From Candidatus Microgenomates bacterium (lineage in GTDB: Bacteria; Patescibacteriota; Microgenomatia; JACPZF01), in NCBI GenBank assembly GCA_016199065.1, contig JACQHK010000049.1, forward strand, positions 1 through 51,880: a stretch of DNA of 51,880 nt, in the 5' to 3' direction. This document shows, piece by piece, positions 28,991 through 51,880 of this stretch. Positions within the stretch are counted from its first letter, which is position 1. Each line of letters opens with the position of its first letter. The position numbers and the translations under genes are program-made. Under the pieces are notes generated by a model. It saw only the letters and a program-made list of their open reading frames with translations, searched no databases and was not told the DNA's origin.

Positions 28991-29010
28991 TCCTTGTCTT
29001 GCAATACCAG

Positions 29011-29515: not shown

Positions 29516-29526
29516 GATAAATCGTC

Positions 29527-30072: not shown

Positions 30073-30087
30073 ACAAGAAATGGGCAA

Positions 30088-30651: not shown

Positions 30652-30733
30652 GACTTTTCTTAGGGCAGAAGACCTTATAAATTAATTTATAGGGCGCATT
30701 ATAACAAAGAGGATTGGGAGATGCAAGTTAACG

Positions 30734-31984: not shown

Positions 31985-31991
31985 ATGGGAA

Positions 31992-33605: not shown

Positions 33606-33610
33606 TAACC

Positions 33611-34852: not shown

Positions 34853-34856
34853 AAAA

Positions 34857-36521
34857 TTATTGTTTGTTTTTATTCGATAAAACCGGTTCGGTAATCAGAT
34901 TCTTGCGAAATTCTTCTTTAAGTTCGTAAACATCAGCAAAAGGATACTTTGCTACTAGATTATACATGGTAAAAAAGCGGGGCACTTGATTAACCGCCTT
35001 AAACGTTAAATCATTGTTATCATATGTTCTCATCACAATCCACCTCGCCCAACGATCAGGTGAAGTAATGGCACTCTCCCAATAGCCGCCTGTTCCTTCG
35101 TGAATAAAACGCTTCATGGGAAGACCTGAGGAAAAAATTATCGCGTCGTGAGAAGCGGCAGAAATAAGAATAAAGCCCTTTTTATCTCCTGCGTTATTTT
35201 TTAGGTATCCGCTTACTTCGAAAACATTTTTTTGTGAAGAACCGACCCTGGCATCGTCGATCGTCACTGCATCAAGGTTAGTAAAGATAAAAAAATAAAC
35301 AAAAATCGTTAAACCTATTATCAGGGGTCGAAACTTTACCAGGCGATCTAGTAGGAAACCAGTAAAAATGGCAAAAGAAGGAAGCATCATTAACCCGTAA
35401 CGCACATTAAACCAGGTGTTTCCCGAAATCCCTTGGATAAATAACACCGAAAAGCCCAAAAATAAGGCAAGGACATTAAAAATTAGCGGAGAAAGCAAAT
35501 TTAAAGTGGAGAGTTTCGTCCAAAAATTAAGTTTTTTGTCTATCCAGATCCATAGGTAACCCAGACCGGAAAGCAGAAAAATGTAAAACGTCGAATTAAA
35601 AATTAGGGCGTAGAAATAGATCTTAAGTGACAGCAAGAAATTGTTTTTGGTAACTAAAACCCCTGCCTCCTGAAGCTGCTGTTGTTGGGAATGAGCCGAA
35701 AACGGTCCGAACATAAAGTAGAGGGCGTCTTTAAAAATTAACTGGTTCCAGGAAAACCACAGAAATATTCCCCAGGCAGCCAGAGTTAAGAACAAAATAA
35801 TCACACCCTCGGTAACCCGATATCCTTTCTTTTTCCACATTCTTACAAGAATAAGTAACGTCACCGATCCTAAAAGAAACCATCCTTCGTAGCGGATTAA
35901 CGTAGCAAGCATTACCCAAAACGCAGTTTTTATTAAATGCAGAATTTTTTCGTTTTTGTTCCACAACATAAATTCATAAGAAGTTAAAAGGATCGTACAA
36001 AGCAGCAATAACTCAGTCATGGCAATTGACTGCATATACAAAATGTTGACGTTTAGGGCAAAAACTAAAACTGCAAAAATTCTTCCCAGCAGACCGACCT
36101 GCATTTCTTTAAGCGTCAGGAAAATAAAATAACCGATCAAAACATAAGAAATCATTGATTGAAGAGCCCCAGACAATCCGGAATGCCACATAAAATCATT
36201 CCAGATCGTGGGAATCATTAATAAATGGGGCAGCGGCAACCAGACAGATCCGATCTGCGCCAAACCGGGTTTTAGTCCTTCAACAACCCGGCGGCCAATA
36301 TCCAGATGTGACCGTGCATCATTGTAGGCCAGTCCCAAACCGTTTTGATAGAAAATTACAAAGCAGACAACGGAAACAATCGATAAAAAGATGACCAAAA
36401 TAATTTCTATCCTGCTTTTTAACAAACTAAAAAGCGGCTGGAGCCTGTTTTTGTCTATCGTCAGGTCAATAGTAAAGGAATAATTTTTCATTTTTTTGTC
36501 CTTCGAGAATAATCTTGCCAA
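34857..36521 (-). CDS. GT-C family (ArnT/PMT-like) membrane glycosyltransferase
   Basis: 554 aa with about 12 TM helices, a first-loop YNDARSHLDIGRRV motif and a C-terminal soluble domain. Confidence 0.5.
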   Translation of the reverse strand: MARLFSKDKKMKNYSFTIDLTIDKNRLQPLFSLLKSRIEIILVIFLSIVSVVCFVIFYQNGLGLAYNDARSHLDIGRRVVEGLKPGLAQIGSVWLPLPHLLMIPTIWNDFMWHSGLSGALQSMISYVLIGYFIFLTLKEMQVGLLGRIFAVLVFALNVNILYMQSIAMTELLLLCTILLTSYEFMLWNKNEKILHLIKTAFWVMLATLIRYEGWFLLGSVTLLILVRMWKKKGYRVTEGVIILFLTLAAWGIFLWFSWNQLIFKDALYFMFGPFSAHSQQQQLQEAGVLVTKNNFLLSLKIYFYALIFNSTFYIFLLSGLGYLWIWIDKKLNFWTKLSTLNLLSPLIFNVLALFLGFSVLFIQGISGNTWFNVRYGLMMLPSFAIFTGFLLDRLVKFRPLIIGLTIFVYFFIFTNLDAVTIDDARVGSSQKNVFEVSGYLKNNAGDKKGFILISAASHDAIIFSSGLPMKRFIHEGTGGYWESAITSPDRWARWIVMRTYDNNDLTFKAVNQVPRFFTMYNLVAKYPFADVYELKEEFRKNLITEPVLSNKNKQ

Positions 36522-38032
36522 TAAAGCGAAAGAAAGACCATCGCCGCGCCAGCGGTTAATAAATAATGATATATTTTTAAATCTATCTTTCCCTTAAGGA
36601 AAATGTTGTAGAGCAGTGAGCTTGACTGATTTTTTTCTATAAATGAACGGTTATATTCGTAAGTCCAGGGAATAGGTTCGATTAAATGAACGGCTTCCTG
36701 CTTGGGCGGAATATCATTGGTTGTTAAACCACCCAAATAACTGAGGTACGAACTGTAAGTAAAAAGGGCCAGAACTAACAGACCTACTGCAAGATTGCGC
36801 CATCTATTTAATAAATAGGGAACAAAGGCAGCCATAACAGCCACAGCGGGAATAAGATAGCGAGGACCGAAAGACCACCCCCCCCACGGGTCACCCCACA
36901 TGGTATAAATTAAGATATTCATCACGATTAAACTAAAAGACAGGAGGGTTATGTTTCGAAGAGATTCCTGACGAACGGCAAAAAATAGCCCTAAAAATCC
37001 CAAAAGAATAACGGGACTGTAATATAGCCAGCTTCGTTCATCGCTTAACATCAAGATATAAAACCCTGACGCCTGGAATCTCGTTTCAAAGGGCGTTTTT
37101 AGTAACTCAAACTCCTGAGATTTTTCCTCTCTGGAATCCTGCGGTTTTCTGGTTTCTAATTGTTGCTTGTAATTATCACCCTCGGGATAGTTATATCTGC
37201 CAATCATTTGGGCTAAACTGGTAGACGATCCGGTGGTCGCTTTATTGTAAAGGGCAAAGAGCGATATGAGGGGCAACATGCCCAAAAACACAGCCACAAA
37301 TGAAAGCTTGAGAGAAATTTTCAGGCGTTCTTTTTGTCCTTCAAGGGAAATATTTTTATAAAGAACATATACCGCCAGCGGTAATAAGGTGAAAGCATTG
37401 GGCAAATCAACCGTCAGACTTGCGGCAAAACAAAAACCGAAAATTAAATTATTGAGAAAATTTCTTTTCTGTAGGGTGTTTAGCAAACAGAGTAAAATAA
37501 ATAGGGTACTGGCATGATGCTGGGTAAATGTGGCGGAGTAGGAAAGTGCGTTGGAGGAAAAAAGAAAAACTACACCACCCAATAGTCCCAGATACTTGGA
37601 TACTCCTGTTTTCGTTGCCAGATAAGCTATTAATAGTAAATTAAGTATGGCTAAAACGGTGGTTAGTAAGTAGGAAAAAAGCTGGGGCAAACCAAATATC
37701 TTACCGATAATATAAAAGGGTACCGCCATAAAAGATATTCCGGGTGTAAAGATTGAAACGTATTTGTCTCCCACCTTAACTAAATCAGGAGATGAAAAGC
37801 GGGTTCTTTGCTCGTTTAAAAAAAGCGTCTGGTCCTCGACAATGGCTTCGGTCAAAACATATCGGGAGCTATTGTTGGTTGATTCAAAAGGCCCACCGAC
37901 TCTGGCGTCCCGCTGTGATTCCTTCTGAAAAAAAATCGGGTTACCTTTATCGCCCTTCACAACGCCTACGACAAGAATAACGGACAGAACTAGAGTCACG
38001 AAAGAAATTATTTTTGAAAAAAATCTTCCCAT
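36488..38032 (-). CDS. GT-C-like polytopic membrane glycosyltransferase (putative)
   Basis: 514 aa and polytopic. It overlaps the downstream GT-C gene by 34 nt. Confidence 0.4.
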   Translation of the reverse strand: MGRFFSKIISFVTLVLSVILVVGVVKGDKGNPIFFQKESQRDARVGGPFESTNNSSRYVLTEAIVEDQTLFLNEQRTRFSSPDLVKVGDKYVSIFTPGISFMAVPFYIIGKIFGLPQLFSYLLTTVLAILNLLLIAYLATKTGVSKYLGLLGGVVFLFSSNALSYSATFTQHHASTLFILLCLLNTLQKRNFLNNLIFGFCFAASLTVDLPNAFTLLPLAVYVLYKNISLEGQKERLKISLKLSFVAVFLGMLPLISLFALYNKATTGSSTSLAQMIGRYNYPEGDNYKQQLETRKPQDSREEKSQEFELLKTPFETRFQASGFYILMLSDERSWLYYSPVILLGFLGLFFAVRQESLRNITLLSFSLIVMNILIYTMWGDPWGGWSFGPRYLIPAVAVMAAFVPYLLNRWRNLAVGLLVLALFTYSSYLSYLGGLTTNDIPPKQEAVHLIEPIPWTYEYNRSFIEKNQSSSLLYNIFLKGKIDLKIYHYLLTAGAAMVFLSLYWQDYSRRTKK

Positions 38033-38037
38033 GGTGT

Positions 38038-39159
38038 TTACATTATTTCACTCACGTATTTACCTAACTGTTTTCCTACAGCGGCGGGAGTAAAGTTTTT
38101 CTTGAAAAGTTGATAACCGTTCTGTGCAATTTCTTTTCTGGCTTGTGAGTTTTGGCTAAGATAAGATAGTGCTTCGTAAAGACTCTGGGGATTTCCGGCC
38201 TGACAAACATAGATATTTTTTCCGGGTTCAAAAACACTTCTGATTACCGGCGCATCAGCAGTTAAGACAACCTTACCCAGAGATAAACCCTGGTATATTT
38301 TATTAGGTATGATTCTTTCGACACTGGGATGCTTTTGTAGAAAACCCAGAAAAACATCGGCCTGCTGAATTATCTTAGGATGTAGACTTTGGTCAATATG
38401 GTGGTAAAATTCGATATTTTTTAATTCAAGACTCTTGGCTCTTTCGTAATTTTTAGAGAAGGTATTCCCTTGTCCAACCATAATAAATTTAATATTTTTA
38501 TTTTTTTGACTAAGTCGTGCAGCTTCAATAATATGTTCCACACCGTGAATCGGACTGTATAGCCCATAATAAACAACCTTTATGCTTTTACTCTCGTTGT
38601 TGAGAGGATGATATTTGTAGAATTCATCATCAGCGCCAATAGAAAGAATCTTTATTTTTTCTTCCGGAACACCGAAAATATTTTCCAGGTATTTTTTTTG
38701 AAAGGGTGTATCGGCAAAAATCAAATCACATAATTTGTAAGCGGTGCCTTCAAAGAATTTAATTAATATCCCCATCAAAGAACTTTTCTTTAATAATCCC
38801 TGCTCCTCGGAAAAACCCGTATAAATGACCAACAACGGATTAAAGATTAATTTCTTATGAAATATTTTGGCTGCGATAAAGGCTATAAAAACGTCAAAAT
38901 GTCCAGGGTAACCGACGTAAATTACGTCCGATCTCTGAAGATCTTTTCTTTGACTCCAGATTTTCCCCAACATTTTGTATTTTCTTAAAATTCTTTTTAA
39001 AAGATTTGACCAGGACATTTCTTCCTGGCTGTCAAGTTTAGTCACTGCAATGGGAACGTTAACCTCGATGACCTCGATATTGTTTCTGCTTAACCCGTTA
39101 AGGATTAGTTTGTTTGATGTGTAATTTGGATCGTAAGTACCGAAAAAACAAATTCTCAT
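38038..39159 (-). CDS. GT4-family (GT-B fold) glycosyltransferase
   Basis: 373 aa. It starts MRICFFGTYDP and has a Glycos_transf_1-like C-terminal half ending in a typical E-x7-E-like region. Confidence 0.7.
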   Translation of the reverse strand: MRICFFGTYDPNYTSNKLILNGLSRNNIEVIEVNVPIAVTKLDSQEEMSWSNLLKRILRKYKMLGKIWSQRKDLQRSDVIYVGYPGHFDVFIAFIAAKIFHKKLIFNPLLVIYTGFSEEQGLLKKSSLMGILIKFFEGTAYKLCDLIFADTPFQKKYLENIFGVPEEKIKILSIGADDEFYKYHPLNNESKSIKVVYYGLYSPIHGVEHIIEAARLSQKNKNIKFIMVGQGNTFSKNYERAKSLELKNIEFYHHIDQSLHPKIIQQADVFLGFLQKHPSVERIIPNKIYQGLSLGKVVLTADAPVIRSVFEPGKNIYVCQAGNPQSLYEALSYLSQNSQARKEIAQNGYQLFKKNFTPAAVGKQLGKYVSEIM

Positions 39160-39163
39160 ATTT

Positions 39164-40078
39164 TTAAACGGTTAAATTAACTGTTAGTTTTTTAGTGCTG
39201 ACAGAAGTTTGCCATTTATCTAAGTTGAACTTCCAGACCCCGTTATAAATTCTGATTGTCACAACAAGCACAAGGTAGGAAAATGTCAAAAGGGGACTCG
39301 TCAGCATTTTTTGTAACATGATTGCCGCAAATTTTTTGCCGGGAATTTGATATTGTTTATTGATAAATTGCAAAGAAAGACCTTTGTGTTCTACCGACTG
39401 GGAAGAAAAAAATCTCCGGCTTTGCTTTATGTGATCGCTTAAAGTTGCCGGCAACTGATAATACACGGCAGCTTTTTTAGTATAGCGGTAAATTAAGTTC
39501 TTTTTTTTGCACCAGAGATAGGAAAAGGCATCCTCATTCATACTTTGCTTTATAACTAAGCTTTTATAATATTGTTTAAAAAAAGCTCTTGCCCGTCCGT
39601 GACAGGAATAGACATTATCGCCGTTGTTTAGGTCCTCATACATCTCTCTTTTCATATCCATGCTTAATTTAAGCATTCGTTGTAAAAAATTATGCGGCGG
39701 TAGTTCTAAAACCCTAATTCCCAGAAGATCGAAATTTTCCCTTAAATACTCCCGGACAATTTTTTCCAGAAAGTTATGATCTTTGATTACCACGTCGGCA
39801 TCTAAGATCAGAAGTAATTTACTTTGGGCTAACTTAAATATTTTATTAAGGACACCTGCCTTACCGATTCTTTTTTTGTTTTCGATTGTAAGAAGTTTTT
39901 TATCTTTAATTTTCCGTAACAAGATTGCAGTCTTGTCGGTTGATCCGTCGGAAACGACGATTATTTTTTCCAGTTCAACCTGATGACTGTTTTGCTGCCG
40001 AATCAAAGTCAAAAGATTAACGATATTTTTTTCTTCGTTATAGGCAGGAATACCAATGCTGATAGTAATTTTGTTCAT
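39164..40078 (-). CDS. GT2-family glycosyltransferase
   Basis: ISIGIPAYNEEKNIVNLL, VVSDGSTDKT and ILDADV (DxD) motifs. Confidence 0.8.
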   Translation of the reverse strand: MNKITISIGIPAYNEEKNIVNLLTLIRQQNSHQVELEKIIVVSDGSTDKTAILLRKIKDKKLLTIENKKRIGKAGVLNKIFKLAQSKLLLILDADVVIKDHNFLEKIVREYLRENFDLLGIRVLELPPHNFLQRMLKLSMDMKREMYEDLNNGDNVYSCHGRARAFFKQYYKSLVIKQSMNEDAFSYLWCKKKNLIYRYTKKAAVYYQLPATLSDHIKQSRRFFSSQSVEHKGLSLQFINKQYQIPGKKFAAIMLQKMLTSPLLTFSYLVLVVTIRIYNGVWKFNLDKWQTSVSTKKLTVNLTV

Positions 40079-40081
40079 ATC

Positions 40082-41008
40082 TTAGATAGCAATATGTTTC
40101 TTGGAAGACATTGTTGTTTCCCAAAGCCCATTCTTGAGTGCTTTTTTGTAAGGAAATTTTCTGATGAAAAGATTCATCGCGATACAACCTGCGGTTGCCA
40201 AAGGGTCTCTGAAAAACCATTTTGCTAACGAGATTAAATACAGTTTTTTAGGCATCGAATAGCGTTTTAAGATATCTGATCCAAAAAAGGATACTGCGTT
40301 TTCTTTGTCGGCCAAAACCGCTCTAATTCCTAACAACCGCCAGTCATGAAATGTTTGCACGCTGCGAAAAAGAAGACGTGATTTTTGTGCTACGGCAAAA
40401 GCATACGGGTCTTTTTTGGTAGCCATGGCGTAAATGAAACATTGGTCAGAAATTGTTCCTGCCGGATAATTTAGTTTTTTTCCGAAATCTCTGCGCATCA
40501 GGTTACAACCGGTTGATGAATAAAAATTATTGCCGGAATTTATTTTTAAAAAGGCATCCTGAAAACTGCAAAAGGAAACATAACTAAATCTACCCATCCA
40601 GGTCTCGGGAGGAAGTGGAACCATTAAAGGTGAAACTAAAACGAGTTTCTTCTTACTCTCCAAAGTTTTAACCATTTCTTCCAAAGCATCCTTATTTAGG
40701 AAACAAAGGTCAGCGTCCATAGTCAACAAATAATCTGTCTTAAATTCCCTGTGAATCATATTCAATGCTTCTGCCTTACCGTTGCGCTTATTGTTTGCAC
40801 GATAAGAAACCATGCTGTTATTATTAGCTACTTTTTTAATTTCATCTACTGTACCGTCCGTGCATCCATCACAAACTACTAAAATTTTTTCGATTGAAAA
40901 ACTTTGTTGCTTTTGTTTTAAGAGCGATTTAAGCAAGACCGCAATATTTCCTTCCTCGTTATAGGCAGGAATGCCAATGGTCAATGTTTTTCGTTTATTC
41001 ATCTTCAT
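40082..41008 (-). CDS. GT2-family glycosyltransferase
   Basis: LTIGIPAYNEEGNIAVLL, VVCDGCTDGT and MDADL motifs. The ATG at 41008 forms an ATGA overlap with the upstream stop (41005-41007). Confidence 0.8.
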   Translation of the reverse strand: MKMNKRKTLTIGIPAYNEEGNIAVLLKSLLKQKQQSFSIEKILVVCDGCTDGTVDEIKKVANNNSMVSYRANNKRNGKAEALNMIHREFKTDYLLTMDADLCFLNKDALEEMVKTLESKKKLVLVSPLMVPLPPETWMGRFSYVSFCSFQDAFLKINSGNNFYSSTGCNLMRRDFGKKLNYPAGTISDQCFIYAMATKKDPYAFAVAQKSRLLFRSVQTFHDWRLLGIRAVLADKENAVSFFGSDILKRYSMPKKLYLISLAKWFFRDPLATAGCIAMNLFIRKFPYKKALKNGLWETTMSSKKHIAI

Positions 41009-41931
41009 ATTTTTAAATCTAACTTTTTGGTTGTTAGGGCTATTGCCCATTTTGCGGTAGAGTACTGGCTCGGGGATTTGGCTTTTAGCTTACAATAAAA
41101 ATTAACTAAGAAAATATAGGAACATAAAACGGGATGTCTGAGAAATTCTTTAAACATCAAAGTAATAAGCAAACCGCGGGGAAGAGCAAATTCCTTTTCA
41201 ACCAACTCTTTTTTAAAATACTCAAACATTCGGTAAGACGTGATAGCTATTCTAGTACCCTGCCTAATATGATCTCTTAATGCTCGCGGAGAACGAAAAT
41301 ATACCAGGGCTTGAGAAACATAACGGTATTTGTAACCGTAAGTCAGGCAACTAAAGTATGTAAAAGAATCGTTAGAAGTCATGTTAGAAGGAACGTTTAT
41401 CTTTTTTACTAACTCTTTTTTGAAAGCTAAGATCTGACCAATGGCTGTATATACATTATGTTCTTTTCCAATAAGAGCTCTCATCTGATCATAGACTCTA
41501 TAACTACAACCCACTGCCTTTTCGGTAAAAGTAACGGCGGGAAGAGGTAGAGTACGACCACCTGTCATTCCCACACTTTTATTCTCCTTAAACGGTTTGA
41601 TTAGGTCTGTTATTAGGTAAGGGTAAGAAAAAATAACATCGGCATCCGATTGAACTAAGATATCGCTCTTTAAATTTTGGTAAATATCGTTTAAGTGACT
41701 TGATTTTCCAATCCTTTTTTTATAGGCAAAAATTTTTATTTTGGAGTTGTTGAGTGATTTTGCTTTTTTCACCGTATCGTCCGTAGATCCATCGGAGTAG
41801 ACCAAAATTTTTTCCAGTACATAACCTGTTTCTTTTTGTTTAAGCACAGATTCCAGAAAGGGAAGAATATTTTCCCCTTCATTAAAACAGCTCACGGCAA
41901 CAGTGACGGTTGGTTTACTTATTATTTTCAT
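41005..41931 (-). CDS. GT2-family glycosyltransferase
   Basis: VTVAVSCFNEGENILPFL, VYSDGSTDDT and SDADV motifs. Its start overlaps the stop of the 1570-aa gene by 4 nt. Confidence 0.8.
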   Translation of the reverse strand: MKIISKPTVTVAVSCFNEGENILPFLESVLKQKETGYVLEKILVYSDGSTDDTVKKAKSLNNSKIKIFAYKKRIGKSSHLNDIYQNLKSDILVQSDADVIFSYPYLITDLIKPFKENKSVGMTGGRTLPLPAVTFTEKAVGCSYRVYDQMRALIGKEHNVYTAIGQILAFKKELVKKINVPSNMTSNDSFTYFSCLTYGYKYRYVSQALVYFRSPRALRDHIRQGTRIAITSYRMFEYFKKELVEKEFALPRGLLITLMFKEFLRHPVLCSYIFLVNFYCKLKAKSPSQYSTAKWAIALTTKKLDLKI

Positions 41932-44900
41932 AAGTTCTTTTTAACAAAGCTTAATTTACGGGAAGGAACTATTCTTTTATTTTCATATAGTTCATATTCT
42001 ATGTGTCTTAACAGCTCTTCCGCACTTTTCTCCCAGCTGAAATTTCTTGCCCAGGTTTGGGCCTCAAGTGACATAACAAGACGCAAATTTCTGTCTTGGG
42101 CAATTTTAAGCATTGCGTCGTACCACGCTTCTATCTGACGAGGAGGAACTAAGATGCCGGTTTTACCCTCCACTACTGAATCTTTTAACCCGCTGACATT
42201 TGAGGCAATCACACAAGTACCGGCGGCGTTGGCCTCAATAACGGTAATTCCCCAACCTTCAATACTGGAAGGTTGAAGAACCGCCCAGCTTTGGGACAAG
42301 ACTTTATTTTTTTCCGCGTCATTAACTTTTCCTAAAAACTCTATGCTTGATTCAAGCTTTAATTCTCTGACCAAGTTTTTAAGTCGATCGCGATCTTCAC
42401 CGTCGCCGGCGATAATTAATTTGGCCGTATCATATTTTTCTTTAAGGCGTGAAAAGGCTTTAATCGCAATATCTACGTTTTTATAGGGTTTTAATCTACC
42501 CAAATAAGAGAACAGGACAGTTTTGGATTTAGGTAAAATATCTTCCGGATAGACTTCTTCTATGCCTGGGTTAATCACTTTAATTTCTTGCGCAATTCCC
42601 ATACCCAGTTTTAACATTTCTTTCTTTGATGATTCGGAAATGGTAATAAATTTTTGTTTTTTATAAACCAGTGGTGTCAACCTTGATTCTATAAATCGTG
42701 CCAACTGAGAAAACGGAAATCTTAAATGCCTCCGAAAAACTTCCTGATGAATGTGAAAAATTAGCACAAATTTAGGCAAGGAAGAGTATAGCGGGGTAAG
42801 AAAGGGTACGCCGTTTTGGCTGTCAATAATAAAGTCGTATTTCCCTCTTAAACGGAAGAGATAATAAATAAACGCCCAGAAATATACTGTATAGAAACCT
42901 CCGCGTCTGATAATTTTTACGCCCTCTAATTCGTCAAGACTCTTGTGTCGTTTGTCATTACCGCAAAAAATGGTCACTTCGTATCCTTTTTTAATCCAAC
43001 GTCTGGCCAGTTCAAAAAGATATTTTTCGGCACCACCGGCCCAAACATGTTTGGTGTCCCTCCAGTTAAAAATGAGAATTCTGGCTTTGGCATGGTCTTT
43101 TCCACCGATGTGGCTGTCAACGTTATAAACTTTAAACAATCCTAGTAAATCAGAAAAATTGCTGAATAATATACCAAAGGCATCAGAAAAAATATGCATC
43201 AATACTACTGCGGAGGTAAAAAACAGGCTGGTAAAAAACATTACGTTGACTACCTGGGCAATGTTTTGATGAAAGTAAATAATCCCCAAAGGAATAAACA
43301 GAGTCAGGATAGAAGAGACAATTGGCACATAATATTCCTTTTTAATCTGGTGGTAACTGATAAAAGACATCGCCACACCAAATAAGGCAAATGCTAAGCT
43401 ATATTTACCAAGATAAGGAACAATGGCTAAGCCTTTTTCTCCGAAAAGCATGGTGGCAAAGTATCCGCCGAAAAAGCTCAGAAAAATTACACCAAAGACG
43501 CTACTGGCAAAAACCGCCAAAAGTAACAGATAAAACACTGTTTTCGAATTTTTTCCCTCTCCCTCCTTTTTACTAACTAAAGGATTGATAAACTGGGAAA
43601 ACAAAGAACCCAACATAAAGATTATTTTTCCGCTTAAGGAAAGCAGGGCGTATTCTCCTGCCGCAACAGCGCTTAGATAATGTTTGGCAAAAATTACGTC
43701 TAAACTTAAAACCGAAATCGTGGAAAAATTGTTTAACAATGAGGCAAAATAGAATTTTTTAGGCACCAGACTGCTTCCGGCATAATCCTGAACGCTTTTG
43801 CCGATTCTTTCGAGGTAATCTTTTCTGATGATAACCCTGCTTAACATCAATACCATGAGGATAGAAAACGGTATCGAAGCATAAACAAATTGTGTCTGTC
43901 CCGAAAACGTTGCCAATAAAACAAAAAGTAGTTTTACGGCTGCTTCAATAATTAACAGGAAAGAAACGGCGATGAAGATGTGAGAACCGGATAGAAATGC
44001 CGTATCTACGGAGTAAAGTGTCGAAAAAACCCATACCGGTGCAAACAAAACAAAAGGCAATATGGAATCTGTCTTAAAAAAACCTTGTAAAAGTGGCGTA
44101 CTAATAAGCCACAACAGAGAAAGAATAAACGAGAAAGGAAGAATTTTTTTGCGTAAAGAAAGCCAGTACTCAACAGAAGGAGATCCTTGTTTTCCTAAAA
44201 GATAGGCGGTTTTATAAATTACCGTGCGCGATAAAGCGCCCAGTGGTATTTGGGAAAGATATAAGAATCCGCCTATTAAGCTAACAGTACCAAACTCAAC
44301 GACGCTTAAGGTTTTACCTAAATAAATGTTGAAAAGAAAATTCAGAAAATAACTAGCCAAAGAAGAGATAACGAGAATTGCTCCTCCTAAGGCAATATTT
44401 GGGCTGGGATGAGGGTTAATATTGACAGGAGCCAAGGGAACATATTTTGTCAAATTATTATTTTCTCTTATGACTTTGGCCTTTTGTAGGTGAAAACCAT
44501 GGATAGTTTTTTCCCAATAATGAGGTTTAAAAATTAACTGAATAAGAGCAATAAAAGCGCTGATGCTAACCATCAACCAATATACGGGAATCAAATAAAC
44601 ATACTTAATAAGTTCCCAATGTCCACGTTTGGCACAACCAATCATGTAGTTATAAAGACAGATAAAATTACCAAAAACCAAAGAGGAAACCGCCATGTAA
44701 AAAATGGCCGTTGGGTAGAGTGATTCAATAGTCGGTCCGACCAGAGAATACAATAAAAAATAAGAGGCTGTGGCAAGCCAAAGAAACGGATTAATGAGCA
44801 TAAAAGCCGTCTTTCCGCCTATCACTATCTGAAAGATCAGAGAATGACTCCGGTGATTTTTCAAAAAGTCAAAGTTATTTCGGCTGTGGACAAAGTAGGT

Positions 44901-46640
44901 TTGAATATAACCTTTAATCCAACGGGATCTTTGTCTAAACCAATTTTTGATATTGCTGTTAGCTTCCTCGAGCGTTGTCGAGTCAATGATTGCTGTTTTA
45001 TAACCTTCGCGAAAAAGCCGTACACCCAGATCACAATCTTCAGTAACATTGAAAGGATCCCAGCCATGTAACTTTAGTAAATCTTTTCTTCGGAAATGAT
45101 TACTGGTCCCACCGAGCGGGATGGTTGTATCAATTGATTGAAGGCCGGGAAGAACTACATCAAACCATAGGGAATATTCTGCCGTAAACAATCTGGTTAA
45201 TAAATTATGTTTGGGATTGTAATAATTTAGTTTAGCCTGCAAACAGATAGTTTGAGGATTGGCTAGAGAAAATGCCAGATATGCCTTCTTTAACTGTTGG
45301 GGGTCGGGAATGTCTTCGGCGTCATAAATTACAACATATTCGCCTTGGGCAAAATGAAGACCATAATTGCAAGCCTTAGGCTTTGTTTTGGGTTGTGACT
45401 CAGGAACGACAATGATTTTAAAATAAGAAGGAAGTTTAGTATTGTTAGCAGCCTCGATGGTTTCTCTGTCGTTTTCCTCTAAAAGAAGCAATACTTCCAA
45501 CTTACTTTTAGGCCAGTCAATTTTCTGAATTGAATCCAAGAACTGGGGAAGAACGCTGGCTTCTTTATATAAAGGACACAAAATCGAGTAAATTGGTAAG
45601 GTTTTCTCTTTTAAAGCTGCCAACGCTTCTTCCGTAATGTGAATCTCAGGAGGTGAATATAAACTACGCAAAATAACATAGGTATTAAAAATTACATCCA
45701 GAAAATAGATGAAGCTTAAGACTGCCACAAACAAAAGCGCTGTAAAATGGGCATTTAGTATTAAACCAAGAACCAAGGAGAAAATTACCAGCAAGAAAAA
45801 AAATTTTTGCCAGAGAGAAAGTGTTTTTAGCGCGGTTTTGTGTAGCGGCAGAGTGGTGTGGGTAATAAACCTCTTCTTTTTGTAGACTACTCCAGCACCA
45901 ATCATGGAATTTTTCTTAAGCGGGTCTATGGTAAAAGTTTTCTTTCTCTTGAATTTGATTTTCAGGTTACCCGAAACAATTTCTACGGCAGTGTGAAAAA
46001 ACTTAACATGTGATTTACCGTGTATTCTGTGAAAATAGGCAATATCCAAGGAGGAGATCTTAAATCCCATTTCCTGGCAGTAATGTAAAAGCACCGTATC
46101 AAAAGTCCAGGGAGAAATCTCGTTTTTAGTAATTTGTCTAGCTATTTCCTTTCGAAAAACCTTTAATCCTGACTGGATATCGCAGTTAAGTCCTAAAAGA
46201 AGTCTACCTACTAAGAAGGCGTTGACCCGAGAAGAAAAACGGCGGAACCAACTGCTGTGATACTTTTTTCTGTTGGCCACGACTACGCCTAATTCCTTGT
46301 TTTTACTAAGAAGGGAAAACATTTGGGGCAAACTTTCGGCAGGATACTGCAAATCACCATCAATCATTCCGACAATCTCCGCTTCGGCCGCAGCCACTCC
46401 TTGCCACAAAGAAAATCCCTTGCCTGTTTTACCGTCTTTTACCAATACTTTTATAGGGTATTTTTTAGTTAGACCTTTGGCGTGCTCCAAACTGTTATCA
46501 GTGGAAACATCGACGACAATAATTATTTCGTAGTTAAGACCTTCCGCACGACAAGCACGATCGATTTTCTCGGCTAAAGGCGCTAAGTTATGAGCCTCGT
46601 TTTTAACGGGAATGATAATACTGAACTGCTTCATCTCCAC
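41928..46640 (-). CDS. 1570-aa multidomain glycan synthase fusion: GT2 + processive-type GT2 + flippase-like polytopic region + GT4
   Basis: Residues 5-230 (nt ~45951-46628) are a DPM1-like GT2 (IIIPVKNEAHNL, VVDVSTDNS, DGDLQYP). A TM pair lies at ~278-325. Residues 345-600 (nt ~44841-45608) are a second GT2 with YDAEDIP and the Q-x-x-RW motif (FRQRSRWIKGY), followed by TM helices. Residues ~745-1160 (nt ~43161-44408) form a Wzx/MOP-like region of about 12 TM helices. Residues ~1185-1545 (nt ~42006-43088) are a GT4 (EGWGITVIEANAAGTCVIASNVSGLKDSVVEGKTGILV). Confidence 0.75.
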   Translation of the reverse strand: MEMKQFSIIIPVKNEAHNLAPLAEKIDRACRAEGLNYEIIIVVDVSTDNSLEHAKGLTKKYPIKVLVKDGKTGKGFSLWQGVAAAEAEIVGMIDGDLQYPAESLPQMFSLLSKNKELGVVVANRKKYHSSWFRRFSSRVNAFLVGRLLLGLNCDIQSGLKVFRKEIARQITKNEISPWTFDTVLLHYCQEMGFKISSLDIAYFHRIHGKSHVKFFHTAVEIVSGNLKIKFKRKKTFTIDPLKKNSMIGAGVVYKKKRFITHTTLPLHKTALKTLSLWQKFFFLLVIFSLVLGLILNAHFTALLFVAVLSFIYFLDVIFNTYVILRSLYSPPEIHITEEALAALKEKTLPIYSILCPLYKEASVLPQFLDSIQKIDWPKSKLEVLLLLEENDRETIEAANNTKLPSYFKIIVVPESQPKTKPKACNYGLHFAQGEYVVIYDAEDIPDPQQLKKAYLAFSLANPQTICLQAKLNYYNPKHNLLTRLFTAEYSLWFDVVLPGLQSIDTTIPLGGTSNHFRRKDLLKLHGWDPFNVTEDCDLGVRLFREGYKTAIIDSTTLEEANSNIKNWFRQRSRWIKGYIQTYFVHSRNNFDFLKNHRSHSLIFQIVIGGKTAFMLINPFLWLATASYFLLYSLVGPTIESLYPTAIFYMAVSSLVFGNFICLYNYMIGCAKRGHWELIKYVYLIPVYWLMVSISAFIALIQLIFKPHYWEKTIHGFHLQKAKVIRENNNLTKYVPLAPVNINPHPSPNIALGGAILVISSLASYFLNFLFNIYLGKTLSVVEFGTVSLIGGFLYLSQIPLGALSRTVIYKTAYLLGKQGSPSVEYWLSLRKKILPFSFILSLLWLISTPLLQGFFKTDSILPFVLFAPVWVFSTLYSVDTAFLSGSHIFIAVSFLLIIEAAVKLLFVLLATFSGQTQFVYASIPFSILMVLMLSRVIIRKDYLERIGKSVQDYAGSSLVPKKFYFASLLNNFSTISVLSLDVIFAKHYLSAVAAGEYALLSLSGKIIFMLGSLFSQFINPLVSKKEGEGKNSKTVFYLLLLAVFASSVFGVIFLSFFGGYFATMLFGEKGLAIVPYLGKYSLAFALFGVAMSFISYHQIKKEYYVPIVSSILTLFIPLGIIYFHQNIAQVVNVMFFTSLFFTSAVVLMHIFSDAFGILFSNFSDLLGLFKVYNVDSHIGGKDHAKARILIFNWRDTKHVWAGGAEKYLFELARRWIKKGYEVTIFCGNDKRHKSLDELEGVKIIRRGGFYTVYFWAFIYYLFRLRGKYDFIIDSQNGVPFLTPLYSSLPKFVLIFHIHQEVFRRHLRFPFSQLARFIESRLTPLVYKKQKFITISESSKKEMLKLGMGIAQEIKVINPGIEEVYPEDILPKSKTVLFSYLGRLKPYKNVDIAIKAFSRLKEKYDTAKLIIAGDGEDRDRLKNLVRELKLESSIEFLGKVNDAEKNKVLSQSWAVLQPSSIEGWGITVIEANAAGTCVIASNVSGLKDSVVEGKTGILVPPRQIEAWYDAMLKIAQDRNLRLVMSLEAQTWARNFSWEKSAEELLRHIEYELYENKRIVPSRKLSFVKKNL

Positions 46641-46820
46641 AACAAAATATCGAGAAAAATACCGAGGGCAGCTTTATAAACTTATAGGGTATTTTTTCTT
46701 GTCTGAGGATTATAACTGATAGTCCTTTGAAAAACAAAGGGCAAAATGGTAAAGATTGCGTATGAAATTAGTATCTGGCGGCAAGTATTAAGTATTAAGC
46801 AAATAAGTAAATTGTAAATT

Positions 46821-47774
46821 TTACAAATTTCCCTTGATACTTACTACTGTCTTATTTCCGCTATGAAATTTTTGGTGAACAATCTTAAGTTGCGGGTTAG
46901 TAACGTGCGTGTAAATCTGGGTTGTTCCTACGTTCTTGTGACCAAGCATCTCCTGAACGCTTCTTAAATCAGCCCCTTTGATTAATAAATCGGTCGCGAA
47001 AGAATGTCTTAGTGTGTGTGGCGTGGCCTTGACAGGAATCCTGGCTTTTTGGACGTATTTGGTCAAAATTCTTTCGATGCTGCGCGTAGTCAGGCGCATC
47101 TTTTCACCATTATCCTCAGATTTTGAATCAGGCCGTTGGTGGATAAATAAAGGTACAAATTCATCTTTACGGGCTTCAAGATATCTTTTTAGCCATAAAA
47201 CAGCCTGATCCGATAAAAAAACTACCCTTGGTTTTTGTCCTTTACCAATCACACCGATCTCACGGGTGTCAAAATTTAGCTGTAAGCGGTTTAATTTCGC
47301 AAGTTCAGAAACACGCAATCCCGTAGAAAAAAGAGTTTCCAAAATTGCCCGATCCCTTTTACCGGCAACGTCAGCAACGTCAATACTGTTAAGCAATCGC
47401 CAAAGTTGCTCAGGATTAAGAAATTTTAATGACTTTCCTTCAGTTTTGGCCAAATCAATTTTATCTGGTGAAACCGTCTTGACGTCATTTTTAATCATAT
47501 AACGCAGGAATGATCTTAGGGCAATAACATAGTAATTTTGGGTAATGCGCTTCAGAAGTTGCCCTTTGGTATCTGTATGGCGGGCCAAATACAACCTAAA
47601 CTGCCTGATGGATTCCTGATCTAGATCTTCTGCATTTAAACCACGGTTTTGGCTCTTAAACCAGTCGATAAAGACGCTTAAGTAATGATGGTAGTTGCGT
47701 ACTGTAAGATTAGAACAGTTTTTTTCGATTTCTAAATATTCAAGGAAGCGGATTAAACCGTCTTTAAGGTCCAT
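46821..47774 (-). CDS. XerC/XerD-family tyrosine recombinase
   Basis: ATG at 47774; the upstream ORF-track extension lies in the TGTACAAT repeat. There is an N-terminal SAM-like domain. Catalytic residues are present: R (GLRVSEL), H-x-x-R (HTLRHSFATDLL), H (LGHKNVGTTQIY) and Y (IYTHV). Confidence 0.85.
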   Translation of the reverse strand: MDLKDGLIRFLEYLEIEKNCSNLTVRNYHHYLSVFIDWFKSQNRGLNAEDLDQESIRQFRLYLARHTDTKGQLLKRITQNYYVIALRSFLRYMIKNDVKTVSPDKIDLAKTEGKSLKFLNPEQLWRLLNSIDVADVAGKRDRAILETLFSTGLRVSELAKLNRLQLNFDTREIGVIGKGQKPRVVFLSDQAVLWLKRYLEARKDEFVPLFIHQRPDSKSEDNGEKMRLTTRSIERILTKYVQKARIPVKATPHTLRHSFATDLLIKGADLRSVQEMLGHKNVGTTQIYTHVTNPQLKIVHQKFHSGNKTVVSIKGNL

Positions 47775-48475
47775 AAAGAATAATTTACAATTTACAATGT
47801 ACAATGTACAATTTTTGTTTTTTTTGCATATATCCCGCGTAGAGAAGTAGAAAACGACCAGAGAAGTGTTTTGAGGCTAAAAAGGGGTTTTTAGGTCTGG
47901 AGCCGAATTGGAGAATAATGGGCAGTAAATTTGTCATAAAACTTATTTTAAATTAAAAATAATTATAAATTGTACTTTGTAAATTATACATTTGCGTGGC
48001 CTATGCCCTGCAGTCTAGCCTCGGTCAACGTCGTAAAAGTATTATTGTGCGACATTAGCAGTATAATCTCCTATCTGCCTTCTGTCAAGGATTTTTTGGT
48101 CTCCGTCAAAAAACCTCCAGACTCTTAAAAGAGAGTAAGTTCTATCTTGTATGGCAGCTGTTACCTCTTGCGATACTGTGGTGTTTATTTAGCGTCTCTT
48201 GGATTTTGCTCTAAACAGACAACTCTTGATACATCCTCCCCGGGGATTAACAACCTATCCGGGACTAAATGATATTTAGCCCTTATTATCAGTCTAAATC
48301 ATTATTTTTATGGCTAACATTTTTATAAAAAGTAGGAAAAAGTAAGTTTTGGGCTTTATTATGCTCTAAACTGCTAAATTCGTGGCTAAAAGTAACATTA
48401 TAAATAACGTGCCTGTATCATCATTGGGAGCATAATAGCAGCTAAATTGCCATTTCTAAGGCTAGAATATCAGAC

Positions 48476-48484
48476 TTATCCACA
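48476..48484 (+). promoter_or_regulatory. exact match to the DnaA-box consensus TTATCCACA (function unproven)
   Basis: Exact 9/9 match. Related minus-strand 9-mers TTAGCCACG (48381-48389 and 48586-48594) and TTAGCCATA (48309-48317) each match the consensus at 7/9. Confidence 0.3.
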
Positions 48485-48774
48485 ACTATGATACGGTCTA
48501 AAAAGTCTTTTCGGGTTTTATTCGGTTGGACTTAACGTATTCATCGCCTAGTTTGGAGCATAATAACAATCTAAACAGCAATATTCGTGGCTAATTTCCT
48601 TCCCGATAATAGAGGTAAACTGTATCAAAATTTAAATTCGCAAGGAATCTCTAACGATCGTGAAAATTTATTCACGTGAAAACTATAGGATAAACACATA
48701 TATCAAACTGTATCATATTTACTATAGGATACTATAGGTTACTTCTCTCTTCTCTACTTGGGACAGGCGGATAA

Positions 48775-48867
48775 TTTACGAATTTTCCAGTTTTCCAATT
48801 TTCCGAAAAATTTTCAGGATTTAATTTTGAAAATTATGAAAATTACGAAAATTTGAAAATTAATCTG
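48775..48867. repeat. intergenic AATTTTC/GAAAATT repeat element
   Basis: AATTTTCCGAAAAATT at 48797-48812, and TTGAAAATTATGAAAATTACGAAAATTTGAAAATTAATC at 48827-48865. Blocks are shared with 19888-19985, 25107-25177 and 13440-13490. Confidence 0.75.
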
Positions 48868-49674
48868 TTATGCCGTCCAAGAGGTCGTCAGAAATGCGAT
48901 TAAAAAAATTATCAGCGGAACAATAACAAACTCTAAAGCAACTCTTCTTAAAAGTCTTTCCTGAAAATGGTATCCTGCCAGACCCAGAAGCGCATAAAAA
49001 AGAGAGGTAAGCATTAATCCTGCCGTCAAAGTTTTTAAAGGCCAAAAAGAGAGAGTTAGCCCGATTTCTCCCATCAGGAGGGCTAATACTAAAGAAAAGG
49101 TCCATGTTTTCCTCTCCACATGTTCTGTTAACTCCACGGACCAGAGGTATTGGACAAATAACAAAAGAGATACTACAAAAAAAGTAAGGCCATTGGCATA
49201 AAAAGGTAAGTTAAGAGACATTACTAGATAAAATAATAAAAAGGAGGTCACAATCGTCAAATAGAAACCTACTGTTTGAGCTGCCCTTATAAGCTGTATA
49301 GTTCTCTCCCCTGCCACGTTAAAAATATTTTCCGTCAGCAGTAATGCATAAAAACCGATCCCGTAAAATACCGCGACCGGTAATCTGGTTATCCATCGGA
49401 CAGGCAACAAAAAGTAAAAATACGATACGGCCAAAGTAAACATCGTAGGCAGAGTCAGAAGCGTTAACCATTCATGTCTTGATAAATCTTCACGTAAACA
49501 AAAAACGGAAAAGACAAAGGAGGCCAAAACCACAATTAAAGTCACCGGATAACGATATTGAACTGAGACCAGCTGGGTTGCCAAAAGAATTAAAACCAAA
49601 AAAATTGTAGAAAAGGCAAATAGTTGGCGCTTCGAAAATGGCTTGAATTTTAACTTAAATTTTTTCATAACCAC
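48868..49674 (-). CDS. polytopic membrane protein, unknown function
   Basis: 268 aa with about 8 TM helices. It lies immediately downstream of yebC on the same strand. Confidence 0.6.
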   Translation of the reverse strand: MVMKKFKLKFKPFSKRQLFAFSTIFLVLILLATQLVSVQYRYPVTLIVVLASFVFSVFCLREDLSRHEWLTLLTLPTMFTLAVSYFYFLLPVRWITRLPVAVFYGIGFYALLLTENIFNVAGERTIQLIRAAQTVGFYLTIVTSFLLFYLVMSLNLPFYANGLTFFVVSLLLFVQYLWSVELTEHVERKTWTFSLVLALLMGEIGLTLSFWPLKTLTAGLMLTSLFYALLGLAGYHFQERLLRRVALEFVIVPLIIFLIAFLTTSWTA

Positions 49675-49691
49675 CCCGATTAATATTGTTT

Positions 49692-50435
49692 TTATTTAGC
49701 AACAAAGTTGGCGTTTGAATAAACTTTTTGTACATCGTCAAGATCTTCAAGTTTTTCCAGAAATTCTATTATTTTTGTCACATCTTCTGCCTCAACGTTA
49801 ATAAGAGAGGATGGCTTCATGGTAAGCTCAGCGCTTTCTACCAATAAGCCTTTACCCAAAAGCTCCTCCTTTACTTTGTGTAATTCATTAGGCTTAGTGT
49901 AAATTTCATAACCGTCGTCTGCTTCCTCTACCTCTTCTGCTCCGCCTTCAATTGCCAGAAGAAGCAAATCATCAGCAGACATTTCTTTTTGCTGTTTTTT
50001 GGGTAAAAAAATTACTCCGAGTAAATTAAATAAGTAAAAAACCGAACCGGAACTGCCAAGCGTACCCCCTCCGCGATCGAAAATATTTTTTACACTGGCT
50101 AAAGTTCTCAACCTGTTATCGGTCACGGCTTCCACCAGAATACCCACTCCCGACGGTCCAAAACCCTCAAAAACTACTTCTTCCAGTTGAGCCCCTTGCC
50201 CCTTACCCACTGCCCTGTCAATTGCCCGTTGAATATTTTCCTTGGGCATATTTGCCTCACGCGCTTTTTCCATCATCAGACGTAATTTAAAGTTGCTCGT
50301 AGGATCGGTTATTCCCCCTCCCTGGCGCACGGCAATAGTTATGGCATTGCCCAGCTTGGTAAAAGCTTGTCCCCGTTTGGCATCGGTAACACCTTTTTGT
50401 CTTTTAATTTGCGACCATTTTGAGTGACCGGACAT
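49692..50435 (-). CDS. yebC: YebC/PmpR-family protein
   Basis: MSGHSKWSQIKRQKGVTDAKRGQAFTKLGNAITIAVRQGGG is the canonical YebC N-terminus; 247 aa. Confidence 0.9.
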   Translation of the reverse strand: MSGHSKWSQIKRQKGVTDAKRGQAFTKLGNAITIAVRQGGGITDPTSNFKLRLMMEKAREANMPKENIQRAIDRAVGKGQGAQLEEVVFEGFGPSGVGILVEAVTDNRLRTLASVKNIFDRGGGTLGSSGSVFYLFNLLGVIFLPKKQQKEMSADDLLLLAIEGGAEEVEEADDGYEIYTKPNELHKVKEELLGKGLLVESAELTMKPSSLINVEAEDVTKIIEFLEKLEDLDDVQKVYSNANFVAK

Positions 50436-50518
50436 ATCTCAATAAGTACAATCTAAAATGTCCCACTTCGCTAAAGCTACGAAGGGATAAATATAATTTA
50501 CCATTATTTTGCTCAGTC

Positions 50519-50546
50519 ATTGTACATTGTAAATTGTACATTGTAA
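50519..50546. repeat. tandem 14-nt repeat ATTGTACATTGTAA x2 in a divergent promoter region
   Basis: Exact duplication (50519-50532 and 50533-50546). The inverted relative AATTTACAATTTACAATGTACAATGTACAATT lies at 47782-47813, upstream of xer. Confidence 0.8.
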
Positions 50547-50559
50547 ATTAAATTGTGTC

Positions 50560-50589
50560 TTGACATTTAAGCCCTATATTCCTTAAACT
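50560..50589 (+). promoter_or_regulatory. sigma70-type promoter for the TPR gene
   Basis: TTGACA at 50560-50565, an 18-nt spacer, then TAAACT at 50584-50589. The ATG at 50598 lies only 8 nt after the -10 and there is no SD, so the transcript would be near-leaderless. Confidence 0.45.
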
Positions 50590-50597
50590 TTCGCCCA

Positions 50598-51332
50598 ATG
50601 GGTAATGATTTAAAAACCAACGCCATTAAAGCTGCCTTGTCTGGTGAATGGAAAGAAGCTGTCAAGCTAAACAATAAGCTTTTGAAAGAAAACGAAATCG
50701 ACTGCGAAACCCTAAACCGGCTCGCACTTGCTTACAAAGCTCTCGGCAACACCAAGAAATCAATTACTGTCTATCAGAAAGTCTTAAAAATCGATAAGTA
50801 CAATTCCATAGCCTTAAGAAATTTAAGCATCTTAAAAAATGGTCAAAAAACCGCAACCGTTAACTTGGCGGCACAGATGGTTACCACCAATTCCAATATT
50901 TTCCTGGAAGAACCCGGTAAAACTAAAATCGTCAGTCTGGTTAATCTGGCGCCGGCACCTAAAATCCTCTCTCTTTATCCTACTGAGTCACTCTCTCTTT
51001 GTATCAAGCGTAAATCCGTCTTTGTCATCGATCAAAAAGAAAATTATATTGGCGCCTTGCCGGATGATATTTCCTATCGTCTGACGAAATTCATGCAGTA
51101 CGGATATAAATACGCCTGTTTTGTCAAAAGCGTTGATAAGAAAGGTTTAAGTGTTCTAATTAAAGAAACGGAAAGGGGCAAAAAATTAAAAAATCAGCCT
51201 ACCTTTGCCATCGGTTTTAATGATCGTGAATATGTCACAACGATTAACTCACCCGATACTGCAACCATAAAAACAACCAAAGACGAAGAATACGAAGGCA
51301 ACGGTGAAGTCAAGGCCGGCGACGAGGAGTAG
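50598..51332 (+). CDS. TPR-repeat protein with a C-terminal domain of unknown function
   Basis: TPR-like helices (WKEAVKLNNKLLKENEIDCETLNRLALAYKALGNTKKSITVYQKVLKIDKYNSIAL), then a ~150-aa beta-rich domain and an acidic tail. Confidence 0.6.
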   Translation: MGNDLKTNAIKAALSGEWKEAVKLNNKLLKENEIDCETLNRLALAYKALGNTKKSITVYQKVLKIDKYNSIALRNLSILKNGQKTATVNLAAQMVTTNSNIFLEEPGKTKIVSLVNLAPAPKILSLYPTESLSLCIKRKSVFVIDQKENYIGALPDDISYRLTKFMQYGYKYACFVKSVDKKGLSVLIKETERGKKLKNQPTFAIGFNDREYVTTINSPDTATIKTTKDEEYEGNGEVKAGDEE

Positions 51333-51880
51333 TCAGCATTTTCAAATATTCCTTTCCCACCATAATGCTTAAATCAGCACGTGACTCCGGCAGGACAGTT
51401 TCTTTTATCTGACAGTGAAAAATTGTTGCCAATCTACTTACCGTATAGGAGGAAACGTCTTCTTTGGCCGTGTAAATCAGGCAGTAACTGATTGGCGAAT
51501 TGAAATTACCGGTATTAATTACTTGAACACCCAAATTAGTTACTATTCTCGCCGCTTTTTCCGCCAGACCCGGTTCGTCGGTACTATTAAGTATTTCGCT
51601 TTTTAAACGCTCTTTTATTATCCCCTCTTCATTAAAAAGATTGTGCAGCTCATTGTCCAACACTTCCGGTTGGGCAGTAAGAACCAGACTACCATCTGCC
51701 TGCCGGTCCTCTATTAAAAGATTCGTGCTATAAAGATCAACAAATTGCAGTTTTCCCCCCGTGATTTTCTTAAATCTTAAATAGACAGAAAGCAAGTTGG
51801 GAAAAGTTAGGTTGGAATGAAATTTTCCTACGCCGGACGAGCTCTTAAATATTGCTTCCCAATTAATAATCTGTTCTTTG
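51310..51880 (-). CDS. LytR_C-domain protein, probably the C-terminal part of an LCP (LytR-CpsA-Psr) protein; 5' end outside the window
   Basis: My hand translation shows the frame stays open from 51795 to the window edge (...KEQIINWEAIFKSSSGVGKFHSNLTFPN-LSVYL). The LytR_C pattern ILNSTDEPGLAEKAARIVTNLGVQVINTGN...IYTAKED is present. Confidence 0.6.
   Translation of the reverse strand, partial: KEQIINWEAIFKSSSGVGKFHSNLTFPNLLSVYLRFKKITGGKLQFVDLYSTNLLIEDRQADGSLVLTAQPEVLDNELHNLFNEEGIIKERLKSEILNSTDEPGLAEKAARIVTNLGVQVINTGNFNSPISYCLIYTAKEDVSSYTVSRLATIFHCQIKETVLPESRADLSIMVGKEYLKMLTTPRRRP

Follow-up and report, generated by a model that had tools for sequence, protein, structure and literature searches.

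A conserved non-coding locus of Microgenomates with a candidate dif-type Xer recombination site beside an xer gene

At a classical replication origin GC skew switches from negative to positive, at a classical terminus the reverse occurs, and the classical dif site is located at a GC-skew switch. Core sites of Xer/dif systems are defined by two inverted 11-bp arms around a short spacer (PMC5357621), and archaeal dif sites were identified by the same arm-spacer-arm criterion (PMC2958812). The gene xerS adjoins its site difSL, and the two form a single module (PMC5357621). Archaeal dif is found near xerA in Crenarchaeota and has conserved flanks in Thermococcales, which have been proposed to be partner-binding sites (PMC2958812); moreover, a position 180 degrees from the origin is not required of it, and XerA activity does not depend on FtsK (PMC2958812, PMC5357621). 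Our search of the searchable literature returned no description of a Xer/dif system in CPR bacteria.

The DNA analyzed here, referred to as the window, is a 51,880-nucleotide stretch from a Candidatus Microgenomates bacterium. A sequence-only reading of it had drawn attention to a repeat-dense region beside a Xer-type recombinase gene and had offered three explanations, namely a replication origin, a large structured non-coding RNA or the decayed remnant of a mobile or array element, of which it chose none. The feature that we place at the center of the region, a 28-bp candidate dif-type Xer core with a promoter, was absent from that reading.

Extent and conservation of the locus

The neighbors of the gap are a Xer-family tyrosine recombinase, a DUF5656 membrane protein and YebC. 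The earlier claim that 47805-48867 is free of ORFs held, as the longest ORFs on either strand are 52, 50, 41, 32 and 30 aa. Judging by the sequence and by N-terminal alignment to other Xer proteins, the xer start is likely the ATG at 47773 rather than the upstream in-frame TTG at 47804, and the non-coding stretch is therefore 47774-48867, or 1094 bp. It is read 5' to 3' on the minus strand, as are both flanking genes. Only one other stretch of the window, 28579-29106, lacks an ORF of at least 100 aa, and it contains a 92-aa ORF.

47774..48867, minus strand: whole non-coding locus, from the DUF5656 stop side to the xer start side
48773..48862, no strand: octamer and nonamer A/T-rich tandem repeats, which recur in other spacers of the window and are not specific to the locus

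Repeat finders bore out the description of the region as repeat-dense, detecting heptamers (47782-47814), 17-mers (47937-47971), three copies of ACTATAGGAT (48682-48741), units of ~40-45 nt, and the octamers and nonamers. Both palindromes that had been reported are present; GGGACTAAAT..ATTTAGCCC occupies 48261-48282, but the coordinates of TCCCCGGGGA had been off by one base (48237-48246, not 48236-48245). At least 6 further intergenic spacers of the window share the heptamer and octamer tandem repeats that mark the two edges of the gap; these repeats reflect a genome-wide habit, not a property of the locus. Heptamer (TTGTACA/TTGTAAA) and octamer (AATTTTCC/GAAAATTn) repeats were located at 3643-3703, 9662-9693, 13461-13492, 19900-19975, 25108-25172 and 50518-50550, and such spacer repeats frequently yield -35/-10-like hexamers. 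Apart from these genome-wide short tandem repeats, no gap repeat was found as an att-like direct repeat elsewhere in the window. The heptamers had given an impression of cyanobacterial STRR-type repeats, which was dropped since the YebC homologues are from Microgenomates; the best relatives of the gap-adjoining YebC belong to Gottesman-, Levy- and related CPR bacteria.

The remainder of the window encodes ArgRS, a type IV pilus cluster, holB, gyrB and a glycosyltransferase cluster. The arginyl-tRNA synthetase (905-3643; 912 aa) has a fused N-terminal B3_4 domain. The pilus cluster (5296-19887) comprises several N_methyl pilins, PilX_N, T2SSF and two T2SSE ATPases, along with several large ORFs that had no Pfam match. 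Immediately downstream of xer, at 41928-46640, is a 1570-aa fusion of GT2, GT2-like and GT4 glycosyltransferases.

The layout of yebC, DUF5656, gap and xer is shared by locus L001, whose YebC is 80% identical and whose gap is 1053 bp. Alignment of the two gaps showed ~20 short conserved boxes, the longest being a 28-nt block after a conserved TTGACA-17-TAnACT promoter. Exact copies of the inner part of this block, the 24-mer GTCGCACAATAATACTTTTACGAC, were present in at least 120 metagenome contigs and in the representatives of 117 GTDB species, making it a practical marker with which to find the locus in metagenomes. In nearly all loci it is on the strand of yebC-DUF5656 and 250-1200 nt downstream of these genes; the surrounding ORF-free gap measures 862 nt at the median. 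An exact 24-mer match was the criterion by which the 237 main loci were collected, and the lack of variation in the 24-mer among them follows from that choice. Given that selection, five more loci (L242-L246) were fetched through YebC alone; all five had the gap and the core site, with 1-3 changes. A genome scan with the DUF5656 protein as the query gave no match, nor did an exact look-up of YebC.

In total, ~245 Microgenomates loci have the arrangement of yebC-DUF5656, a gap of ~0.9 kb and xer. The gap represents, in this genome, a non-coding locus that is conserved among Microgenomates (Levy-, Gottesman-, Woesebacteria and relatives), and no other conserved non-coding stretch of these dense genomes is as large. 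The earlier reading was right that the region is unusual, functional and tied to the Xer gene. Two side observations concern the loci themselves. Among 24 full contigs of at least 4 kb with the 24-mer (L005-L084), 20 by a hand count end within ~2 kb of it, compared to ~13.6 expected if placement were uniform; such ends could come from a break in assembly, from strain variation or from a step in coverage. In some lineages ruvC lies between yebC and DUF5656 (L243:10832-11308), so that three recombination-related functions are clustered there (RuvC, the Xer site and Xer).

Between species, the gap is ~72% identical while third codon positions of yebC are 45-64% identical. The locus evolves more slowly than synonymous sites, which indicates selection along the length of the gap and rules out a decayed remnant. 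A pseudogene, a decayed mobile element or a CRISPR-like array is accordingly a scarcely credible description of the gap. Four units of ~40 nt spaced 73-128 nt apart and the inverted TTAGCCTC/GAGGCTAA boxes at both ends would suit it, but the position is fixed and syntenic in ~245 genomes under purifying selection, no relative has an ORF at the gap position, and neither transposase nor cas genes were seen.

The 28-bp core and the proposed control of xer

The features of the core and of the DNA between it and xer are as follows.

48028..48055, minus strand: Xer/dif-type core ATGTCGCACAA/TAATAC/TTTTACGACGT, with 11-bp inverted arms and a 6-bp spacer (left arm 48055-48045, central 6 bp 48044-48039, right arm 48038-48028)
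46821..47773, minus strand: xer, encoding a 317-aa Xer-family tyrosine recombinase (Pfam Phage_int_SAM_1 and Phage_integrase)
48060..48088, minus strand: sigma-70 promoter TTGACA-17-TATACT, 11/12 consensus, the best in the region
47774..48027, minus strand: putative xer 5' leader with AT-rich repeats, a box, a hairpin and heptamers
47937-47994, minus strand: AT-rich repeat block of the leader
47873-47880, minus strand: TTAGCCTC box of the leader
47877-47894, minus strand: CTAAAAA-CCCC-TTTTTAG hairpin of the leader

The core has the layout of a Xer/dif site, for which two imperfect inverted arms of ~11 bp and a center of 6-8 bp are expected; its arms agree at 9/11 positions as read from the sequence. 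It occurs once in the window and once per locus, it is non-coding and conserved among the loci, and a cognate Xer-family recombinase is encoded in the genome, by a gene that adjoins the core in the window. More than 237 loci carry the inner 24-mer without a mismatch. In the loci fetched through YebC, changes fall at arm position 7, always towards arm symmetry, or in the central region: position 7 is T/T in L242 and C/C in L243, L245 and L246, and L244 is changed in the central region. The core was not seen at a terminus or GC-skew switch, as third-codon-position GC skew (GC3 skew) keeps one sign from one flank to the other in over 90% of loci. We consider the core to be probably a dif-type Xer recombination site, a candidate that forms the center of the conserved locus and has the xer promoter upstream of it. 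A point against this assignment is that a palindromic DNA site and an RNA or single-stranded DNA hairpin predict identical arm symmetry, and T.G makes up the outermost variable pair of the core stem in 44% of loci, as would also suit a hairpin on this strand.

A small ORF starting from the ATG of ATGTCG was considered and rejected, as this ATG is ACG, TTG, AAG or another triplet in ~25% of loci and conservation is at the nucleotide level. In 2 of ~240 loci (L187 and L203) the core is inverted relative to yebC, DUF5656 and xer and to the DnaA and other boxes.

The Xer protein scored 241 bits on the XerC, 236 on the XerD and 210 on the XerA NCBIfam models, each below the respective cut-off, and its closest PDB matches were XerD (1a0p) and XerA (4a8e). 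A homologue with 57-87% identity is encoded downstream on the same strand in 131 loci, and where at least 4.5 kb of flank was available (80 loci), 70 had the conserved xer within 4 kb. The core lies 0.24-4 kb from xer; the gene directly follows the core (204-280 nt) in the window, L001 and L244. The core-adjoining xer of L244, a Gottesmanbacteria-like genome, encodes 731 aa (L244:8393-10588) and has an intein (Intein_splicing and LAGLIDADG_3) within the integrase domain.

Both promoter hexamers and their 17-nt spacing are kept in L001 and L244, and the sequence of the spacer has diverged. With so strong a promoter just upstream of the core, the xer transcript of the window's lineage would start at the edge of the core and run into xer. 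Copies of the core arm, GTCG[CT]ANA[AT], were also in approximately fourfold excess on the same strand (~190 compared to ~50 expected). Nearly all of the extra copies lie 400-2500 nt downstream of the core, while the expected copies are spread evenly. An arm copy was present no more than 150 nt upstream of the xer start in 101/129 loci, either abutting the -35 TTGACA or overlapping the -35 or the -10 element. Only the left arm recurred (12 copies, with 0.5 expected); no right-arm copies were found.

Arm copies in xer promoters are what would be expected of a DNA-binding protein that recognizes the arm and controls xer, and the simplest candidate for this predicted regulator is Xer itself. A promoter that fires into the core and xer likewise suggests that xer may be regulated by its own product. 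In the mechanism we propose, two Xer monomers would bind the two core arms, strand exchange would take place across TAATAC, and bound Xer would repress its own gene; where xer is more distant, a single arm copy (GTCGCACAAT) built into the xer promoter may serve instead. The most likely purpose of the core site would be chromosome dimer resolution. An integrated-element (IMEX) origin of the arm copies was rejected: the copies lie inside promoters, and the copy with a degenerate second arm is on the xer side, the wrong one for simple integration. The window has no second copy bounding the glycosyltransferase cluster.

Upstream boxes, RNA folding and replication

The ~800 bp upstream of the promoter fall outside what the Xer-site model explains. 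They contain the following conserved features.

48476..48484, plus strand: perfect DnaA box TTATCCACA (TGTGGATAA in locus orientation)
48659..48682, minus strand: two TTTTCACG boxes, a conserved DnaA-box-like pair (48666-48659 and 48682-48675)
48508..48525, minus strand: CCGAATAAAACCCGAAAA box, a CGAA-N7-CGAA direct repeat homologous to ACGAAAAAAATACGAA in other lineages
48682..48758, minus strand: conserved 5' block of three elements
48758-48741, minus strand: purine-rich AGTAGAGAAGAGAGAAGT of the 5' block
48682-48741, minus strand: three copies of CCTATAGT in the 5' block
48714-48700, minus strand: GATACAGTTTGATAT of the 5' block
~48279..48597, minus strand: four units of ~40-45 nt, TTAGCCAC..GTTTAGAGC..TTATTATGCTCC (family D1 and relatives), lineage-specific

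The perfect DnaA box occurs at ~0.7 per locus in a constant orientation and is confined to 200-800 nt upstream of the core, with no others within 3 kb on either side. The paired TTTTCACG boxes (TTTTCACR), at ~1.7 per locus, are on a single strand only and follow the same pattern of placement and orientation as the perfect box. Further boxes upstream of the promoter are GATAYAG direct repeats and the inverted TTAGCCTC/GAGGCTAA boxes. Modules differ between lineages in copy number and orientation: a module related to the ~40-45-nt units has the opposite orientation in other lineages, and the order of boxes is K-D-H-H-CGAA in one group and H-H-CGAA-K-D in the group of the window. A parS site was considered as well; TTTTCACGTGAA of the window is parS-like, but its palindrome is not kept in relatives. 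We propose that the upstream boxes may bind proteins, as accessory or architectural sequences of the recombination site or as part of an adjacent replication element, and that they are not an RNA gene.

A large structured RNA, the second of the earlier explanations, was not borne out. At the Rfam gathering score neither the window nor any of 12 loci gave a match, nor did the gap at E<=10 or E<=1; the families without a match include tmRNA, RNase P, OLE, GOLLD, ROOL and HEARO. The ultraconserved 24-mer had prompted tmRNA, RNase P, SRP and 6S RNA as candidates, which ARAGORN and Rfam did not support, and the ARAGORN search found no tRNA or tmRNA. RNAalifold on 140 sequences gave nothing beyond a stem of 5-6 bp. 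Extension of the hairpin past 6 bp and a mutual-information scan gave no signal above controls, and a pseudoknot between the loop and downstream sequence was no better than in shuffled sequence. In the xer-yebC interval of relatives, which the sequence-only reading had proposed as a comparison, it is short boxes that are conserved, with covariation limited to the 6-bp palindrome. Over 680 nt, minimum free energy z-scores had a mean of -1.1 for the top strand and of -1.5 for the bottom one; the window scored +0.4. Taken together, the missing Rfam family, the shuffle-level folding energy and the lineage-variable box order make a large structured RNA unlikely.

The most specific form of this explanation takes the whole ~0.9 kb as one minus-strand RNA closed by pairing of a 5' TTAGCYTC box with a 3' GARGCTAA box, with the 24-mer as a hairpin having a conserved 16-nt loop; we regard it as improbable. 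Several strand preferences are in its favor. Pairing of the terminal inverted boxes can extend over as many as 21 contiguous positions, some of them U.G pairs workable on this strand only, and the same-locus duplex was -30.9 kcal/mol here compared to -26.9 kcal/mol for the opposite strand (n=13, p=0.06). At the edge of the stem T.G is frequent and C.A is rare, the RNAalifold energy is marginally better on this strand, and the locus is co-oriented with the G-rich, presumed leading, strand. However, the searches for known families, folding, stem extension, pseudoknots and mutual information described above were all negative, the D, H and K modules are permuted between lineages and are inverted or variable in copy number, and the presence of arm copies in xer promoters speaks for recognition by a DNA-binding protein.

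The remaining explanation was a replication origin, and here the skew is informative. GC3 skew on the site-bearing strand was positive to the left in 95% and to the right in 92% of loci, out to ~9 kb, with neither kind of classical switch. Positive skew on both flanks was independent of gene orientation, as confirmed gene by gene in L001, L242 and L243. With the same sign on both flanks, the locus is neither a classical origin nor a classical terminus. Approximate queries found no dnaA within 8-10 kb on either side in any locus and no ftsK within the loci. With respect to DnaA boxes, there is one perfect and two near boxes of conserved position; AT content is not raised on average, and neither a GC-skew minimum nor a sign switch was found. 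The window itself is ambiguous on skew, as per-gene values are strong for the four yebC-side genes and weakly opposite on the xer side, and signs alternate in blocks further on. These blocks set 29500-47800 against 10000-28500 and 48900-51800, and the opposite sign of the glycosyltransferase/xer block may indicate an inversion, or acquired DNA next to the locus.

The classical form of the origin explanation is therefore unsupported, and an unusual form of it, with unidirectional replication, survives. Kadnikov et al. described monotonic skew in three Microgenomates lineages and proposed an origin close to the terminus with replication in one direction (PMC7143001). Applied to this locus, such a scheme would have the origin directly beside the terminus and DnaA bound to the box cluster, and it would extend the Xer-site explanation, not exclude it. 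One fork would run rightwards via the core and xer around the ~1-Mb circle and return via yebC-DUF5656; a single fork traveling the full circle would then place the dif-type site and xer at the end of replication. We consider this arrangement doubtful, though worth weighing in earnest. The perfect and the two near-consensus DnaA boxes, fixed in position and orientation with no other within 3 kb, are consistent with it, as is the standing of the locus as the largest conserved non-coding stretch of these dense genomes, with gyrB and gyrA 6-27 kb off. Same-sign skew on the flanks, with the locus in fixed orientation to it, is the exact prediction of unidirectional replication, and the scheme would put a dif-type site at the terminus despite the lack of a skew switch. 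Complete genomes of Microgenomates (Ch65, Collier- and Beckwithbacteria) do have monotonic cumulative GC skew (PMC7143001).

Yet any locus in the middle of a replichore predicts the same skew pattern, and per-gene skew in the window flips sign in blocks. The gap of the window has a single TTWTNCACA match and no marked AT-rich unwinding element (AT 0.62-0.66 compared to 0.61 overall, with one bin of 0.71 just past the core), and dnaA was not found nearby with an approximate query. Moreover, the published monotonic skew concerns the order UBA1400, one member of which has normal skew (PMC7143001). If the arrangement is true, it would locate the origin and terminus that Kadnikov et al. only postulated from monotonic GC skew (PMC7143001), and unidirectional chromosome replication would be extended to Levy-, Gottesman- and Woesebacteria.

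Comparison with known systems

The Xer-site reading, which we prefer for the core, can be set beside five described arrangements. Bacterial XerCD/dif sites are also 28 bp in the same layout, and the core likewise is strongly conserved across the phylum and present once per locus. However, only 14/28 positions match E. coli dif by our own comparison, in one orientation; the core is off the GC-skew switch, and arm copies are in the xer promoter. The near-identical arms, which also differ from XerCD/dif, suggest that a single recombinase may act at the core.

XerS/difSL of streptococci and lactococci resembles the locus in that a recombinase gene and a chromosomal core site are linked as a module (PMC5357621). 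The protein here scored 116 bits against the XerS cut-off of 267 and so falls outside that family. The center is 6 bp, compared to 11 bp in the 31-bp XerS/difSL site, and the core lies within ~0.9 kb of conserved DNA, apart from xer, with no skew switch.

Archaeal XerA/dif shares the 11-6-11 geometry, nearly symmetrical arms and a site close to the recombinase gene, and at 210 bits the protein is near the XerA cut-off of 220. In contrast, the host is bacterial, the XerC and XerD scores are slightly higher, and the conserved flank is far longer.

In the plasmid sites cer and psi, a Xer core is flanked by long protein-binding DNA, as predicted here, with possible selectivity without FtsK (PMC5357621). 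The present site is chromosomal, its flank is 800 bp instead of ~180 bp, and the spacing to the core is variable; no ArgR, PepA or ArcA sites were identified in the flank. The perfect TTATCCACA and the two near-consensus boxes, in a fixed arrangement, recall oriC and its DnaA-box clusters, but the boxes are few, and there is no skew switch, adjacent dnaA or clear unwinding element.

For a superphylum of uncultured bacteria, the locus supplies a 28-bp candidate site, its recombinase and a predicted circuit of self-regulation. Dimers may be resolved here at a distance from the terminus, through an accessory-sequence or FtsK-independent mechanism such as archaea and plasmids use. Alternatively, origin and terminus may be neighbors, a case of direct relevance to the one-directional replication that has been reported for chromosomes of Microgenomates. 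The best-supported description overall is a conserved module of Xer and a dif-type site, with an xer gene that is probably autoregulated, set in ~0.8 kb of conserved, predicted protein-binding DNA. From XerS/difSL and XerA/dif the locus differs in its protein family, its absent skew switch and its very long conserved flank with a DnaA box.
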